In this document: piece after piece, positions 1 to 60,076 of the stretch | Layout: each line of letters opens with the position of its first letter | Numbering within the stretch: position 1 is the stretch's first letter | Origin: Escherichia phage PGN6866 | DNA length: 64,000 bases | Strand: one strand, 5' to 3' | Sequence record: MT127620 | Made by a program: the position numbers and the translations under genes | The notes under the pieces: generated by a model | What the model saw: the letters and a program-made list of their open reading frames with translations, nothing else | Databases searched by the model: none | Told to the model about the DNA's origin: nothing

Positions 1-1026
1 CAGAATGGTAAAAAACTTTCTTTTGCTAACTGGATTTCTGTTCTGTCCCCTCAGGATACCCCGTTCGTATCTATGACCGGTAAAGAGTCTATCAACCAGA
101 CTATCTTTAGCTGGCAGACCGATGCACTGGCAAGCGTTGACGGTAATAACGCACACGTCGAAGGCTCTCGTGCTGAAGACGGCGAAATGAAACCGACTGT
201 TATCAAATCTAACGTTACTCAGATTCTGCGTAAGGTTGTTCGTGTTTCTGATACTGCTAACACCACCGCTAACTACGGTCGTGGTCGTGAACTGATGTAT
301 CAGCTGGAGAAGAAAGGTAAAGAGATCAAGCGTGACCTCGAGAAAATCCTTCTGTCCGGTCAGGCTCGTACCGACGTTCTGGCTGACCAGTACCTGACTA
401 ACTCTGCAACTGATCCTGCAACTGTTGGTCTGAACGACACTCATGCAGCTCGTAAGACTGGTGCATTCCAGTTCCTGTGTGCTCACGGTGGTCTGGCTGG
501 TGGTGTTGTTGACAAGACCAAGAATGGTCCTGCTGACCCGGATACTGGTGCAGTAACTGTTAAAGTTGCACAGAATGCTTCTAACCCGACCACTAACATT
601 GGTTTCGACGAAGCTGATATCTTTGATATGACTCTGCAACTGTATACCGCTGGTTCTGAAGCAGATATCATCATGATTAACCCGGCTCATGCTAAGATCT
701 TTGCTGGTCTGCAAGAAAATACTCAGGGTTCACGTAAGCGTATCTTTGAGAACACCAAGCAGTTCATCTACGAAGTTAACAGCATCACTGACCCGCTGGG
801 CCAGAGCTACAAAATCATCGTTAACCGTTGGATGCCTACCGATGCAGTTTACTTCTTCCGTAGCGCTGACTGGACCCAGATGGTTCTGCGTGCTCCGAAA
901 CGTACTGAACTGGCGAAAGATGGTTCTTACGAGAAGTGGATGATTGAAATGGAAGTTGGTCTGCGTCACCGCAACCCGTATGCTTCCGGCGTTCTGTTCA
1001 CTGCTGCGGGAAAGGTGGCGGCGTAA
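1..1026 (+). CDS. Probable major capsid protein, 5'-truncated (frame open to window start; track ORF begins at 73)
   Basis: Frame 1 has no stop from nt 1; strongly biased high-expression codon usage (ctg/cgt/ggt/gct/aac); first gene of structural module; followed by -1 frame Ig-like ORF. Confidence 0.6.
   Translation, partial: QNGKKLSFANWISVLSPQDTPFVSMTGKESINQTIFSWQTDALASVDGNNAHVEGSRAEDGEMKPTVIKSNVTQILRKVVRVSDTANTTANYGRGRELMYQLEKKGKEIKRDLEKILLSGQARTDVLADQYLTNSATDPATVGLNDTHAARKTGAFQFLCAHGGLAGGVVDKTKNGPADPDTGAVTVKVAQNASNPTTNIGFDEADIFDMTLQLYTAGSEADIIMINPAHAKIFAGLQENTQGSRKRIFENTKQFIYEVNSITDPLGQSYKIIVNRWMPTDAVYFFRSADWTQMVLRAPKRTELAKDGSYEKWMIEMEVGLRHRNPYASGVLFTAAGKVAA
1008..1014 (+). other. Candidate programmed -1 ribosomal frameshift site, slippery heptamer G_GGA_AAG
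   Basis: X_XXY_YYZ heptamer 4 codons before capsid stop; -1 frame is open from 909 through the Big_2 ORF to 1550. Confidence 0.45.
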
Positions 1027-16860: not shown

Positions 16861-18516
16861 ATGCAACAGACAACTTACGCTCAGGTCAGAAGTCGTGACC
16901 CGAGAAATACTTTCTATGGTGTTAATCCGGGAGCGGCTTCGGCCTCTCCTTATATGGCTAGACCAACTCAGACAGCAGATATTTCTATGTATCAACGTCC
17001 TGCTGTACCTTCATCTCTTGCGGGTCTTGTCTCTCAGGCAGAAGAAGATCAGAATGCTATGGTTAATCCGGGATTCCAGCAACGTCTTATGGAACAGCAG
17101 AATCAAGGAACTCCTACCAGTCTTCAGGGTATTGATATTGGAGCACCGGCCCCTGTAGCAGCTAATCCTAACCTATCCACTGATCAGGGTTTACAGGATG
17201 CTGGGCTTATGCCTAGTGACCCTCTTCCGGTAACACCTCCTCCTAAACCACTAGAAGCTGGTCCTATAGAGTTTACTCCTTCTCAGGTGGAGCAGGCACA
17301 AGGTGTGATTAATACTCTTGCTCAAGGACAAGACGCTGGTGATGGGATGACTGCTGCTACTCGTGCTAAAGATCAAGAACGTGTTAACAATGATATCTTG
17401 CAAGTTGCGAAAGCTAAAGACCCTTCAGAAGCTTGGAACAAACTACAGAAAGAACCATTCTATCAGAACTCTAGTTTCTACACAGGGTTGATGGGTGTAG
17501 GTCTTTCCATTATGTCAGGTAAGTCTCCTATCGAAGCTTTCCAGATTGGTCAGGGAATGGCTAATCAAGATGAGACTAAGAAGCAACTGGAAGCTAACCG
17601 TGATGCTCTGATTGAACAAGGTTTCTCTCAAGACTCAATCGCAGCTGCTATTGCTAACGGAGACCCATCTCTTCTGAAGATGAAAGCTGTAGACCCTGCT
17701 CAGAAAGAAGCTCTGTATGCTGCTCGTGAAGAACGTCAGAATGCTGAATGGGACAGACGTCAACAGATTCAAGAGCAGGCTATGCGTGAACGTGCCGAGG
17801 AAACTCGTCGTGCTGCTGAAAAGAGAACTGATATGAACTTTGAACGTCAGAAAGAGTTGATTGGCTATCGTGATAAAGTTAAGGCTGAACGTGCTGAACA
17901 AGTTGCTCAAAGTTTCAACTTCCCCACGAAAGAAATTCGTAACGCTCAGAATACAGCTGAAGGTACTATCGCTAAGCAATGGGCAGAGAAAGGTGGCTTG
18001 TTTAACCAGTCTAATAAAGACTTGGATTTGGCTGATAAAGCTGTTAAGGACAAAGACTATCAGACGGCCCGTTCTGCTTACATGCAGGCTATCATGAACT
18101 CCGCAAGGGCTGAAATTGGTTCTACTCGTTCTCTCACTGAAGAAGATTTGGGACATTTTGCAGAAGACCCATCAATCTTTATCCGTGTAGGTAACAAGTT
18201 TGCTCTGAAGTCTGGATGGCGTCCTACTGATGCTGCTCTTGCTTATGCTCGTAAACAGGCTAACGTCGGTCACACCTCTGCTATGAAAGGTGTTGCTGAT
18301 GCTAAGAGAGATACCATCAACGCTTATATTGGTTCTGGTATGGATAAGAAGAGAGCTACTGCATTGGTTAACCGTGCAATTCCTTCTGGCGGTTTCTATG
18401 ACCCTCTTGGTGCTTTCTCTGAAGAAGCAGAGGAGGCAGTTGGTGGTGCAGCAACCAATCCTAAGCTTAACGGTGCTTTATCAGCTGTCGAAGACACTAG
18501 CTGGTTCACACAATAA
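16861..18516 (+). CDS. Hypothetical virion protein (551 aa), coiled-coil rich
   Basis: ORF with RBS ttaggag. Confidence 0.6.
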   Translation: MQQTTYAQVRSRDPRNTFYGVNPGAASASPYMARPTQTADISMYQRPAVPSSLAGLVSQAEEDQNAMVNPGFQQRLMEQQNQGTPTSLQGIDIGAPAPVAANPNLSTDQGLQDAGLMPSDPLPVTPPPKPLEAGPIEFTPSQVEQAQGVINTLAQGQDAGDGMTAATRAKDQERVNNDILQVAKAKDPSEAWNKLQKEPFYQNSSFYTGLMGVGLSIMSGKSPIEAFQIGQGMANQDETKKQLEANRDALIEQGFSQDSIAAAIANGDPSLLKMKAVDPAQKEALYAAREERQNAEWDRRQQIQEQAMRERAEETRRAAEKRTDMNFERQKELIGYRDKVKAERAEQVAQSFNFPTKEIRNAQNTAEGTIAKQWAEKGGLFNQSNKDLDLADKAVKDKDYQTARSAYMQAIMNSARAEIGSTRSLTEEDLGHFAEDPSIFIRVGNKFALKSGWRPTDAALAYARKQANVGHTSAMKGVADAKRDTINAYIGSGMDKKRATALVNRAIPSGGFYDPLGAFSEEAEEAVGGAATNPKLNGALSAVEDTSWFTQ

Positions 18517-18536
18517 GACCTAAGTCCTGCCTTCTA

Positions 18537-18547
18537 TAATGTATATA
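18537..18547 (+). promoter_or_regulatory. TAATGTATATA motif, candidate phage promoter element
   Basis: Recurs at 1610 and 28456; 37 nt upstream of the RBS of the large gene. Confidence 0.35.
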
Positions 18548-27531: not shown

Positions 27532-27556
27532 CGAAAAAAGCCACCCGGAGGTGGCT
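27532..27556 (-). terminator. Rho-independent terminator after SSB-like gene
   Basis: gccacc-uccg-ggtggc hairpin followed by U6 on the minus strand. Confidence 0.5.
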
Positions 27557-27577: not shown

Positions 27578-28324
27578 TTAGAATGGGCTATCGTTGTCGT
27601 CTTCGTAAGTAGAAGCAGGCTCTTTATCAATCGTAGGGATTGAAGGGGTAGCTTCTTTCTGCTCTGTTTCAGAAGCACGAGTAATTTCACGACCAGCCAG
27701 AGGCATGTTCTTAGCGTCATTAGCTTGAGTAAGCAGGTTGCGCTGGAACGGGAACATCAGTTGATAGGATGCTACGTTCTCATCGGTTTCAGCATACGGT
27801 TCGAAGAATACCAGAGGACTACGAGCTTCACCAACTGCTGCACGATATTTGGTTGGGATTGGAGAAATAGTCTTGATGGAGTTTTTAACTTCACCAGCTT
27901 TGTTAGTGTAAGAGTTAACCAGAATGTTAACAGGCTGACCTAACAGAACATCCTTGAACCAAGACAGATCACCTTTCAGTGCTTGAATACTTGGGTCAAT
28001 CATCTTGCAAAGATCAAGAATACCAGAGTTCTTAGCTCGTGGGTTTACATCATAGCTCTTGAACTGGCAAGCCGGACGTGGTTCTAATGCCTTACCATCG
28101 GAATCTTTACCAGTAGCATCAACACCAATCAGCTCGAAAGCTAAATCCATACGGAAAGCCGGATTCTTAGGAGTCACTGCTTTGGTCTTCGGGTCAACCC
28201 AAGGGTCACGATTGTGAACACCCAAACCTACTACACGAACGATACGTGCTTCGTACTCACCATCAGGGATGATGTCGTAGTTGGATTTACGAGAAGAAGT
28301 TGCGATAGTTGGAATCATAGACAT
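27578..28324 (-). CDS. Candidate single-stranded DNA-binding protein (T7 gp2.5-like acidic C-tail ending in Phe)
   Basis: C-terminus YEDDNDSPF; position in replication module. Confidence 0.5.
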   Translation of the reverse strand: MSMIPTIATSSRKSNYDIIPDGEYEARIVRVVGLGVHNRDPWVDPKTKAVTPKNPAFRMDLAFELIGVDATGKDSDGKALEPRPACQFKSYDVNPRAKNSGILDLCKMIDPSIQALKGDLSWFKDVLLGQPVNILVNSYTNKAGEVKNSIKTISPIPTKYRAAVGEARSPLVFFEPYAETDENVASYQLMFPFQRNLLTQANDAKNMPLAGREITRASETEQKEATPSIPTIDKEPASTYEDDNDSPF

Positions 28325-28383
28325 ATTTTAATTTCCTTATTTAATTTGAAAGATTGTTGCTCTCTTTGAGCGGTTATGTATAG

Positions 28384-28392
28384 TATACATTA
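28384..28392 (-). promoter_or_regulatory. TAATGTATA motif in minus orientation, candidate promoter for leftward genes
   Basis: Reverse complement of the motif seen at 1610 and 18537; located in AT-rich intergenic region. Confidence 0.35.
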
Positions 28393-28455
28393 CGCTTATA
28401 CCGATAAGAGTACTATATAATATAAGTATCTTTGGTAGTAGATATAACACACTAG

Positions 28456-28466
28456 TAATGTATATA
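28456..28466 (+). promoter_or_regulatory. TAATGTATATA motif in plus orientation
   Basis: Third plus-strand copy; would drive transcription antisense to minus-strand genes. Confidence 0.3.
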
Positions 28467-28560
28467 TTGTATAGCTGATAAAGTTATTGCAGGCTTGTAT
28501 ATTGGGCAATTCACAGAATCCCTTGCAAGTACCGAAGGGCAGGAGCCACCTGCGAGATAA

Positions 28561-28626
28561 AAATAGAGAATTAAGGAATCCTTGATTTAGGTTGTAGGGA
28601 CTCCTAGGGACTTTGATTCTCTATTT
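28561..28626. repeat. 11-bp inverted repeat (aatagagaat / attctctatt) enclosing tandem tagggact direct repeats
   Basis: Perfect IR arms ~45 nt apart; tagggact at 28595 and 28605. Confidence 0.5.
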
Positions 28627-28740
28627 AAAAGAATATTAATTACTTATTACCTAAATAATTAACTAACTTACTTAAACCAAATTCAATAAGAATAGATAAA
28701 AAGATTATTCCTAAGAAAGCTAAAAAGTAAAGGATATAAG

Positions 28741-28917
28741 TTACCATTCAAGTAAACCTTTAAAGTTAGACTGTTCTACTATCCTCTGATAACGAAGATT
28801 AGAATCAGCTTGTTTCTTTAACATCTCATTATATTTATCTCTGATAGAGTCTTTATAAACTACAGGTTCTTTAAATAATGAGATCTTCTTTTTCTCAGAG
28901 TTAGATAGTACATCCAT
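28741..28917 (-). CDS. Small hypothetical protein
   Basis: ORF; start trimmed to internal Met. Confidence 0.35.
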   Translation of the reverse strand: MDVLSNSEKKKISLFKEPVVYKDSIRDKYNEMLKKQADSNLRYQRIVEQSNFKGLLEW

Positions 28918-31149: not shown

Positions 31150-32994
31150 TTAGTGTGTGTGCATCCAGTTAAGTCCAATCTGACAATCAGATGCCAGAGG
31201 ACATTCCATGTTCAGATACTCGCCAGCTTTCTTAACACAAAGCTCAGTGTGCTCTTTGAGTTTCTGTACATCATTACGGTTTACTGAGAATTGACCTTCA
31301 TCGTGCATATCAATTACCTTAGCACAACGAACCTTATCTTTCTCAATCCACTTGTTAAGGAACATCATAGCATATTTCATAACAACAGCACCAGCACATT
31401 GCAGGAGTGTGTTAAGGGCTTTATGAACCATAACCTTACCAGTGGCATCCCGTCTCATTGTAATCTTACGACCATCAACTCCAATCAAGTATCCTTGAGC
31501 AGCTTTCTCTGTCATACGATCAATGAGGATTGCAATACATGGGTTCTCTGCTAAGAAACGTGCTCGCATCACTGAACCTTCGTCAGCCCCACCACCTACA
31601 ATTGAACCAAGCTTAGCGTCACCAGCACCATAGTTGAATGCGTAGATAAACGTCTTAGCGTTGTCACGAGTAGGAAGACCAGCAAGTTTCTGGTTGTGGG
31701 AGTGGATATCACCTTCAAGGAGAATATCACGATACATAATAGCAGAAGCTAAACCACGTTCTGCCAGAGCTTTCTTAGCTGGGTTGTTCTCTTCGATTGC
31801 CTCAGCAAGCATATCCCTACACTCTTTAATGAGGTAGTGAGCGAGCATACGAAGTTCAAGTCCAGAACCATCATACCCTAAGAATACTTCTTTACCAGCG
31901 GGTATGTAATATTTGTAAGCACCTACAGGTTTGTCTTTCTTCCCCGGCTTACCTTTCTCGTAAATTACGTTAGTACCTTTTCGTATATAACAACCATCAG
32001 GAACAACGTTAGTAATAACGAAAGGACGAGAGTGATCACTGTCTGAGTTATAGTCAGACTCAAACAAACTGCGACACTCGTGACCAAACAAACCACGGGA
32101 GGGAATATTAACCACGATACGATGTTTGAATCGAAAAGTTGGCGTAGCGCAGCTGTTAGCTTCTGCCGAAAGTTTACCATCTTCGCGTTCCTTTGCTATA
32201 AGTCCACTGATAAGACCCAGCCTGTGAGCCGCTACAACGCGTCTCTTAAGCAAACTTCCGACACTCCCTAGCTCACCCCCTAACCCTTCTTCAAGAGTCT
32301 CCTCGAGGTTTGTAGGAGCTGTAGGCCACTTGTTTGATGTGGCTAGTGCTTTCTTAATCTCATCAAACGTTACAGGATTACGTCGATTAGGGTTTAATCC
32401 CAAACCAAATACGTAAGCCTTCATATAGTTCTTAGTTTTAAACCTAAAATGCTTTTCTAAGAACTTCTTAATATCAGCGTCAACCATCTCGGCTGTCTGT
32501 TTTTGCTTAGCATTACCTCGCATCCAAGCAGTATACCATGCTTGGTATGTTCCATACTTTCTCATATCTTTCTTAATTTCGAAAGTATTCCAAGGCTTCT
32601 TAGATACGTTAAACTCTGGAGGAAGAAAGCCCTCATCCATAAGAGCTTCTTTAACTCGTGCATCTTTCGATGGGTCAAAGTCTACGTATTCGACACAGGT
32701 GAAAGCTCCACCAATATCTTCTCTCTTCAGCCCAACCCTATCACAATAGGCTTGAGGCCACTTCTGTAAAGCTCCAGACTTCTTAAACGGCTTCATATAA
32801 GTAGAGCCATCTAATCTCATCTTAGGTAAGAGAGGAATCAGTTCTTTGTCAATATTAACAATAATCTCTTTAAGGAGGTGAACATACCACCGAGCATTTC
32901 TTCGGTTGAAACTCACTCCGTGCTTTGCTTGCTTAGAGATTATATCAGCGACAGTCATCTCTGTCAAAAATGGAAGAGCGTCCGGGTTGCTCAC
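31150..32994 (-). CDS. DNA polymerase, family A (polymerase domain only)
   Basis: Motif A DGSGLELR, motif B K..N...YG, motif C VIDMHDE; no exonuclease motifs. Confidence 0.85.
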   Translation of the reverse strand: MSNPDALPFLTEMTVADIISKQAKHGVSFNRRNARWYVHLLKEIIVNIDKELIPLLPKMRLDGSTYMKPFKKSGALQKWPQAYCDRVGLKREDIGGAFTCVEYVDFDPSKDARVKEALMDEGFLPPEFNVSKKPWNTFEIKKDMRKYGTYQAWYTAWMRGNAKQKQTAEMVDADIKKFLEKHFRFKTKNYMKAYVFGLGLNPNRRNPVTFDEIKKALATSNKWPTAPTNLEETLEEGLGGELGSVGSLLKRRVVAAHRLGLISGLIAKEREDGKLSAEANSCATPTFRFKHRIVVNIPSRGLFGHECRSLFESDYNSDSDHSRPFVITNVVPDGCYIRKGTNVIYEKGKPGKKDKPVGAYKYYIPAGKEVFLGYDGSGLELRMLAHYLIKECRDMLAEAIEENNPAKKALAERGLASAIMYRDILLEGDIHSHNQKLAGLPTRDNAKTFIYAFNYGAGDAKLGSIVGGGADEGSVMRARFLAENPCIAILIDRMTEKAAQGYLIGVDGRKITMRRDATGKVMVHKALNTLLQCAGAVVMKYAMMFLNKWIEKDKVRCAKVIDMHDEGQFSVNRNDVQKLKEHTELCVKKAGEYLNMECPLASDCQIGLNWMHTH

Positions 32995-35242: not shown

Positions 35243-35692
35243 TCAACTCTCTTCTAGTATAATCCTGTACATTGCTTCCTGAGCATCTTTCATATCTACA
35301 TATGGACCAAGCACCTCACTATCTTTTCTGATGAACCAATCACCTTCTTTGAATATCAGAGATACGTGAACATCTTTATTATTTGCTTTGACTGCTCGCC
35401 CCCATGCTGGGTTATGTCGGGATAAATTATCAATATGACAATTATCAGTGCGCCCATCCAGATGGTGTAAATAAGATTGAGGCCACTGGCCTGTCTCTTT
35501 ATACCATACGGCTTTCTTCAATTCAACAATGCCACATGGTAGTCCTATGTATAGGATATTAGGCTGTAAGCTAAAATTATACCACTTAGATGTGAAAGGG
35601 ATTAGAGGTTCCCTTTTGGTGAAAAACATCGGCCCCTCTCGAATGTATTCTAGACTATCTATACACTTCAAAATCTTTTCACTATAAAGCAT
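35243..35692 (-). CDS. HNH homing endonuclease with AP2-like DNA-binding domain
   Basis: HHLDGRTDNCHIDNL (HNH_3-type) motif plus C-terminal AP2-like segment. Confidence 0.7.
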   Translation of the reverse strand: MLYSEKILKCIDSLEYIREGPMFFTKREPLIPFTSKWYNFSLQPNILYIGLPCGIVELKKAVWYKETGQWPQSYLHHLDGRTDNCHIDNLSRHNPAWGRAVKANNKDVHVSLIFKEGDWFIRKDSEVLGPYVDMKDAQEAMYRIILEES

Positions 35693-36614: not shown

Positions 36615-36930
36615 GGTTCATATCTTTATGAATCCTGTAAACAGCTGTCGCCATACAAGCAACAGCCTCGTTGTGTGGGAGGTGCATCCCTGTAGAACCA
36701 TCCCAATCTTTGAACTCATTGTCAAAGACTCCGGTAGGCTCTGGATATAGAGCTTGCAGCTCCACTAGATCATTAGCAACTTGTTGCCATTTATCATCAG
36801 ACCAGATAGGGTCATCCAACCAGTAATACAAATAGGAATGGATGATCAATTGCCTTCTATGCCGATTTATTACTTCAGCGGGACTTATCTCACTTCCATT
36901 TGAAGTCCTAAATGTATTACTGTCAATCAT
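36601..36930 (-). CDS. Hypothetical protein (109 aa)
   Basis: ORF. Confidence 0.5.
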   Translation of the reverse strand: MIDSNTFRTSNGSEISPAEVINRHRRQLIIHSYLYYWLDDPIWSDDKWQQVANDLVELQALYPEPTGVFDNEFKDWDGSTGMHLPHNEAVACMATAVYRIHKDMNHEVL

Positions 36931-60000: not shown

Positions 60001-60076
60001 TGGTGCGCCCTACAGGACTCGAACCTGTAACCAATAGCTTAGAAGGCTACTGCTCTATCCATTGAGCTAAGAGCGC
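60001..60076 (-). tRNA. tRNA-Arg (anticodon UCU), CCA encoded
   Basis: Manual fold: acceptor GCGCTCT/AGGGCGC, D-arm GCTC/GAGC, anticodon stem GTAGC/GCTAT with loop CTTCTAA, T-arm ACAGG-TTCGAGT-CCTGT. Confidence 0.85.

Follow-up and report, generated by a model that had tools for sequence, protein, structure and literature searches.

The known promoter P40, with a candidate divergent gp36 promoter and a predicted non-coding RNA, in the gap upstream of gene 40 of a phiEco32-like Escherichia phage

Genes, composition and repeats of the gap

The DNA analysed is a stretch of 64,000 nucleotides from Escherichia phage PGN6866 (sequence record MT127620), which is referred to as the window throughout and is ~98% identical to Escherichia phage phiEco32, a member of Kuravirus (Gordonclarkvirinae). 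The 2 kb surrounding the gap considered here show 98% identity to phiEco32 and are matched by 98 related phage records; window coordinates are converted into those of NC_010324 by the addition of 8248. All genes around the gap lie on the minus strand, with gene 40 on its left and genes 42, 43 and onward from position 28741 on its right. According to the annotation of phiEco32, genes 39-37 and then the sigma factor gene 36 follow downstream of gene 40, and the DNA polymerase gene 53 is located upstream of the gap, likewise on the minus strand. A perfect sigma-70 consensus promoter, composed of TTGACA, a 17-nt spacer and TATAAT with an extended -10 TG, was observed at 32939-32967 (-), where the DNA polymerase ORF (31150..32994) has its 5' edge. 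The tRNA-Arg(TCT) at 60001-60076 (-) is the known single tRNA of the phiEco32-like phages.

A sequence-only reading had described positions 28325-28740 as an AT-rich, gene-free region that represents the largest non-coding gap of the replication module. Its composition was borne out, as the region contains 29.8% G+C compared with 42.5% in the window, and only 0.06% of the 416-nt windows across the 64 kb are equally AT-rich. The description as gene-free holds for ~315 bp (28325-28639) and fails for 28640-28740, since the latter part is covered by phi32_41, a small ORF annotated in phiEco32 and its relatives, which reduces the truly non-coding part accordingly; within the 8 kb whose annotation was inspected, no other gap is larger. 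The phi32_41 peptide reads MVTYILYFLAFLGIIFLSILIEFGLSKLVNYLGNK. Where the ORF starts, it overlaps the gene-42 stop, and only some relatives possess it. Apart from phi32_41, no credible small ORF was found in the gap, where the scans for sigma-70 promoters and for terminators gave background-level results.

The motifs that had been pointed out in the gap are all present. The nonamer TAATGTATA occurs in both orientations, at 28384-28392 (-) and 28456-28464 (+), and the 64 kb holds four exact copies against 0.65 expected, with none of 100 shuffles reaching at least four. The direct repeat TAGGGACT is found at 28595-28602 and 28605-28612, which are its only two copies in the window, and their occurrence 10 nt apart is not striking when taken alone (P ~0.16 in Markov-1 simulations). 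The 11-bp inverted repeat AAATAGAGAAT / ATTCTCTATTT has perfectly matching arms spaced 45 nt apart and reaches P ~0.03 by itself in simulations. The repeats are therefore weak on their own, and it is the conservation of the gap motifs across three genera (Kuravirus, Suseptimavirus and Nieuwekanaalvirus) that marks them as more than chance. In XT32, EK010, ECBP2 and L058, both copies of TAGGGACT have lost one G in parallel (GAGGACT..TAGGACT) and the 5' arm of the surrounding hairpin has gained one A; the changes look concerted. The features of the locus are compiled in Table 1.

Table 1. Annotated and predicted features in and around the gap (window coordinates)
Feature	Position	Strand	Remark
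Strong canonical terminator AGCCACCTCCGGGTGGCT, then T5	27556..27539	-	directly after gene 40
Gene 40 (phi32_40 homologue, 248 aa)	27578..28324	-	ORF list and phiEco32 annotation
P40, -10-like element TAATGTATA	28384..28392	-	known gp36-dependent middle promoter
Candidate promoter Pnew, -35 region TTGGTAGTAGATAT	28432..28445	+	identical to the P68 block
Candidate promoter Pnew, -10-like element TAATGTATATA	28456..28466	+	100% conserved
Predicted 5'-terminal hairpin AUAGCU GAUAA AGUUAU	28471..28487	+	begins exactly at the predicted +1; 6 bp
Variable central domain, type A here	28488..28530	+	closing helix UUGCA.../...UGCGA conserved
Predicted small hairpin GCAGG-AGCCA-CCUGC with A-rich linker GAGAUAAAAAU	28531..28560	+	in both type A and type B
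66-nt hairpin	28561..28626	+	base formed by the 11-bp inverted repeat, extended with G.U pairs
Very AT-rich stretch, 19% G+C, mostly phi32_41	28627..28740	.	variable or absent among relatives
phi32_41, 35-aa hydrophobic ORF	28640..28747	-	annotated in phiEco32 and relatives; PHROG 24970, E=6e-26

P40 and a candidate promoter on the opposite strand

Experiments have identified six gp36 promoters, which precede genes 6, 13, 26, 40, 58 and 68 (PMC8948821, PMC4331800). The promoters read by E. coli RNA polymerase together with the phage sigma factor gp36 are characterized by a single consensus element, tAATGTAtA, with the transcript beginning 6-8 nt beyond it (PMC8948821 section 3.1; PMC12276001). 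Among them, P40 has been published as a gp36-dependent middle promoter (PMC8948821 sections 3.1, 3.2, Table S3; PMC4331800), and aagcgtaatgtatactatacataaccgctcaaagagagcaa, located between CDS37 and CDS38, is entered in Table S2 of the SU10 study (PMC4281155). The minus-strand promoter sequence at 28392..28384 is identical to this SU10 entry and lies upstream of gene 40 in the direction of transcription; the minus-strand copy of TAATGTATA is P40 and hence already known. Its -10-like element is 100% conserved in 11 phages. With the numbering of the P68 open complex, the start is predicted at ~28377, which leaves a 53-nt 5' UTR with the ribosome-binding site AAGGAA at 28335-28340. The -35 region of P40 reads AGTA at -37..-34 where P68 has GGTA, so that -34A is present and position -37 is occupied by A.

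The product of gene 40 belongs to PHROG 6599, a family without annotated function, and is annotated as SSB in two records. Its C-terminus ends in ...EDDNDSPF, an acidic tail similar to the C-terminal tip of bacterial SSB, and the protein is probably an ssDNA-binding protein. Searches with gp40 returned no PDB or Pfam matches, and its single-sequence AlphaFold2 model (pLDDT 36.6) was too low in confidence for a fold search. P40, gene 40 and the terminator directly behind the gene appear to constitute an independent expression cassette. An HNH endonuclease gene is situated between gene 40 and the canonical terminator in several relatives.

The plus-strand copy of TAATGTATA is embedded in an arrangement termed Pnew, which reproduces the published promoter P68 box by box. 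P68 is composed of TTGGTAGTAGATAT-gataactctc-AAATGTATATA and Pnew of TTGGTAGTAGATAT-aacacactag-TAATGTATATA; the two have in common the -35 14-mer TTGGTAGTAGATAT, the 10-nt spacer length and the -10 block [T/A]AATGTATATA, whereas the sequence of the spacer and the flanks are unrelated. The combination of the same boxes and spacing with unrelated spacers and flanks argues for selection on the boxes and against a recent duplication. Exact TGGTAGTAGATA occurs in the window only in Pnew and P68. According to the cryo-EM structure of the open complex at P68, AATGTA occupies -14..-9, and gp36 contacts -14A, -13A, -12T, -11G, -37G and -34A, the last two of which are bound by the gp36 CTD; mutation of the contacted bases reduced (-10 region) or abolished (-35 region) transcription (PMC12276001). 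All six of these bases are found in Pnew, which carries TTGGTA at -39..-34, and both TAATGTATA copies of the gap are exact for -14A, -13A, -12T and -11G.

The composite motif, consisting of the -35 block, the spacing and the -10 block, occurs exactly twice per kuravirus-like genome, as P68 and as Pnew, in IMG/VR genomes and metagenome contigs, and the metagenome scan yielded no lineages more divergent than those in GenBank. When 17 distinct sequences of Kuravirus, Suseptimavirus and Nieuwekanaalvirus are compared, the boxes of Pnew are kept and the spacer varies in sequence at constant length. Pnew stands back-to-back with P40, the -10 elements being ~64 bp apart. In phage ES17, ~150 bp with a small ORF have been inserted between P40 and Pnew and both promoters remain, which indicates that they are separable modules. 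The inserted ORF encodes 47 aa in ES17 and its close relatives and lies at 682-825 (-) of the ES17 record (L014).

Pnew points against all neighbouring genes from a predicted start at A28471, which corresponds to phiEco32 position 36719, and a search for a gene downstream of it on the plus strand found neither an AUG nor a conserved ORF. Judged from its boxes, Pnew is a candidate gp36 promoter of the P68 class and has apparently gone unreported. For the plus-strand TAATGTATA, the literature searched mentions no promoter, though one may figure in Pavlova 2012 or Savalia 2008, and the feature tables among the matches listed contain no promoter annotation at this position. A bioinformatic study of 2015 covered the gene-direction strand of intergenic regions only, and Pnew, which lies on the other strand, would thus have been missed by design.

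The gp36 promoters appear to form classes according to their upstream region. The late promoters P13 (1610; 1580-1618, +) and P26 (18537; 18507-18545, +) share TAAGACCTA at -38..-30, and the middle promoter P68 (40322-40288, -) shares TTGGTAGTAGATAT at -39..-26 with Pnew (28432-28466, +); -34A is common to all five gp36 promoters compared, and -37G is confined to the P68 class. No exact copy of the published P58, in which TAATGTATA precedes gene 58, exists in this phage. Segment 34625-35700 (-) is 99.6% identical to ES17. The gene-58 start codon forms the end of phiEco32 homology there and is abutted by the end of an HNH-like ORF (...CANCHAIHTFNQRESGEI), and the nearest P58-like motif is AAGTGTATA, with one mismatch, at 35668..35660.

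The predicted RNA and the 66-nt hairpin

Transcription from A28471 would produce a structured RNA of ~156 nt (182-184 nt in the type-B phages described below), antisense to every neighbouring gene and devoid of an AUG or a credible ORF downstream of Pnew. Its predicted order comprises a 5' hairpin, a swappable central domain within a closing helix, a small hairpin, an A-rich linker and the 66-nt hairpin. In the 5' hairpin, compensatory changes were observed at two of five pairs (UA/GC and CG/AU/UA) together with a GC/GU change at a third, and the resulting covariation score was reached by 1 of 500 shuffles. The covariation is limited to this one 5-bp helix; the other 42 pairs are invariant, and the invariant helices speak neither for nor against the predicted structure.

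The central domain exists in two types, A (39 nt) and B (65 nt), which are unrelated in sequence and differ by 26 nt, and this difference in length excludes coding. The two types are mixed across the genera and paired with different 5' hairpins in a mosaic pattern, and the minimum-energy folds of both keep the UUGCA/UGCGA closing helix. A search for the type-B domain outside the phiEco32 phage group gave chance hits only. The following 96 nt at the 3' end of the RNA, which encompass the small hairpin, the linker and the 66-nt hairpin, show 95% mean pairwise identity across the phages, compared with 86% for the gene-40 CDS, 72% for the third codon positions of gene 40 and 54% for the inter-promoter DNA. 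Such strict conservation would fit a site acting at the DNA level equally well. With regard to strand, G.U pairs on the plus strand occupy seven pair positions at which the minus strand would have A.C, and for each of the 17 variants the plus-strand fold is more favourable by 3-10 kcal/mol; the fold z-scores of -2.0 to -2.7 are modest.

Searches of Rfam 15 with the predicted RNA gave no match at the gathering threshold and two chance-level hits at E up to 10, and the tRNA/tmRNA scan reported the distant tRNA-Arg alone. Within the window, no trans target of at least 12 nt was found, the complementary 11-mers being at chance level, and no similarity to the RNA was detected in E. coli genomes. 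Taken as a prediction, a conserved non-coding RNA transcribed from Pnew is well supported at the level of sequence and appears to be new.

The 66-nt hairpin accommodates both copies of TAGGGACT, the first in its apical region and the second as part of its 3' arm. It folds with -22.5 kcal/mol on the plus strand versus -17.7 kcal/mol on the minus strand, and it has three G.U positions and, in addition, an A-to-G change by which the pair is kept on the plus strand only. On either strand, the 5' arm is A-rich and the 3' arm is U-rich, and an inner hairpin of ~-9.5 kcal/mol is followed by the U-rich arms. The U-tract after the hairpin comprises 5 nt on the minus strand (TATTTTTATCTC, conserved T5) versus 2-3 nt on the plus strand, and the terminator scan did not call the hairpin. 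On the minus strand, it lies 14 nt past the phi32_41 stop codon. In XT32, Bas86, EK010, ECBP2 and Bas94, homology extends no further than the hairpin, and gene 41 is missing or has been replaced, which implies that the conserved unit extends from the promoter to the hairpin and is independent of the gene beyond it.

Most likely, the 66-nt hairpin forms a shared 3' end of the predicted rightward RNA and of the upstream leftward operon. We infer this and do not put it more firmly because the hairpin is non-canonical, was not called by the scan and is followed by only 2-3 U on the plus strand. In the leftward mRNA, it may instead be a processing site of the RNase III type.

Interpretation and comparison with known systems

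The organisation of the gap had been regarded as typical of a replication origin or a regulatory hub. The second half of this proposal stands, as P40 is published and the plus-strand copy of TAATGTATA has all the features of the P68 class, and the first half found no positive sign. The hub is real, and its P40 half is already known; the half made up of Pnew and the predicted RNA appears to be new. In the reading preferred here, to which a probability of roughly 0.6 is assigned, the gap would be a transcription hub in which P40 is combined with a divergent promoter for the predicted non-coding RNA and with a transcript-end hairpin shared by both directions. Leftward, P40 (-10 at 28392..28384) would start the gene-40 mRNA near 28377, which would end at its own terminator after gene 40. 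Rightward, Pnew, with TTGGTAGTAGATAT, 10 nt and then TAATGTATATA, would be read by gp36, and the 66-nt terminal hairpin would mark the convergent ends of the rightward RNA and of the upstream leftward operon. The predicted RNA is most likely a middle-phase regulatory RNA acting via its conserved 3' part.

It might be argued that leftward transcription alone matters, the 66-nt hairpin being a terminator or an RNase III-type processing or stabilising site of the leftward mRNA, after which P40 restarts transcription, and Pnew being silent or a convergent roadblock or insulator with a functionless product. This would agree with the conserved T5 (TATTTTTATCTC) and the 14-nt distance from the phi32_41 stop codon on the minus strand, and also with the invariance of all helices other than the 5' hairpin; moreover, terminators are commonly followed at once by a promoter. 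However, such a scheme leaves unexplained why all genera keep a complete P68-type -35/-10 pair, its spacer variable, on the opposite strand, why compensatory changes occur in a hairpin that starts at the predicted +1, why G.U pairs appear on the plus strand where the minus strand would have A.C mismatches, and why ~90 nt of structure lie between the hairpin and Pnew. Leftward transcription as the sole function is accordingly considered unlikely. If Pnew were silent, the gap would consist of P40 and a transcript-end hairpin, which is ordinary.

A more ambitious version of the hub would be a modular middle RNA made by gp36, in which a conserved 3' effector is combined with a swappable specificity domain and which primes or activates replication at the adjoining AT-rich DNA or controls phage or host expression in trans. 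This elaboration is rather doubtful, and slightly more so is a transcription-primed origin of the T7/T4 type, in which the rightward middle promoter would fire together with the replication proteins and the transcript would activate or prime the leading strand in the AT-rich DNA past the hairpin. An origin of this kind would account for a phage-specific promoter without a downstream gene, located inside the replication module beside the probable SSB gene and followed by DNA of 19% G+C right after the hairpin, and the strict conservation of the 3' part is compatible with a DNA-level site. There are precedents in the primary origin of T7, which consists of promoters 1.1A/1.1B and an AT-rich region, and in oriF/oriG of T4, which combine a middle promoter with an unwinding element.

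The features expected of an origin, on the other hand, did not appear. GC skew, which the sequence-only reading had named as a check, changes sign only near 24 kb, where the gene orientation flips, and shows no inflection at the gap (28.4 kb). DnaA boxes (TTATNCACA) are absent from the region, and for an iteron array of three or more units there are two 8-mers only, both within an RNA-type hairpin. The AT-rich stretch lacks conservation, some relatives having only ~50 bp of it. Between this stretch and the promoter lie 156 nt of predicted structured RNA with a higher GC content, and more distant relatives lack the element: those with a gp40 that is 67-69% identical have ~146 bp upstream of gene 40 and the element is absent. 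The upstream regions of L008-L010, ECO319P1 and PJNS034 are short and unrelated and give no comparative leverage, and the literature searched contains no mapped origin for the phiEco32 phage group. A replication origin has no positive support, although the sequence leaves room for one of the T7 or T4 type.

Very improbable is an RNA decoy against host defence that mimics a CRISPR repeat or an antitoxin, in which GCAGG-AGCCA-CCUGC and GAGAUAAA would imitate the repeat and the swapping of the domain would reflect an arms race; the two-allele central domain exchanged between genera would suit it, as would the small hairpin, a GCCA-loop hairpin followed by AUAAA that loosely resembles the E. coli type I-E repeat, but neither a CRISPR-DR nor any other Rfam family falls on the small hairpin even at E up to 10. 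The sole DR hit (E=2.7) maps to a different site on the opposite strand, and nothing similar was detected in E. coli genomes. CRISPR-repeat mimicry by the small hairpin was set aside, no Rfam model supporting the resemblance.

The hub with its divergent candidate promoter would be of interest since work on phage-encoded sigma factors and on the gp79/gp36 switch has phiEco32 as the reference system. Six promoters have been on the phiEco32 list since 2012, to which Pnew would add a seventh and, if true, with it a non-coding product in a transcription programme that had been considered completely mapped. Pnew is set apart by the combination of its P68 class, its wrong-way orientation and the conserved structured RNA predicted downstream, and for gp36/gp79 biochemistry it would offer a template that can be tested at once. 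Broader interest would attach to the predicted RNA if it served to prime replication or had a specificity domain that can be exchanged, and the replication-priming version, if true, would define the first origin for the Gordonclarkvirinae.

Several known systems can be set beside this locus. A middle-class phage promoter without a downstream gene and with AT-rich DNA further on recalls T4 oriF/oriG and the T7 primary origin, from which the present arrangement differs in the intervening 156-nt structured segment and in the lack of conservation of the AT-rich part. As in bidirectional intrinsic terminators, A-rich and U-rich arms flank a central hairpin at a point of convergence, although the central stem of the 66-nt hairpin is long, imperfect and AT-rich. 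The OOP RNA of phage lambda is a short antisense RNA whose promoter faces the 3' end of cII, and it shares with the predicted RNA the small size, the non-coding nature, a promoter converging on the end of the upstream operon and a hairpin at the end. In contrast with OOP, several relatives retain the predicted RNA but have lost or exchanged the gene beyond the 66-nt hairpin, which argues against a dedicated cis-antisense target. P68 itself heads the middle operon and is followed by a ribosome-binding site and a gene, whereas the sequence downstream of Pnew is non-coding and predicted to be structured.
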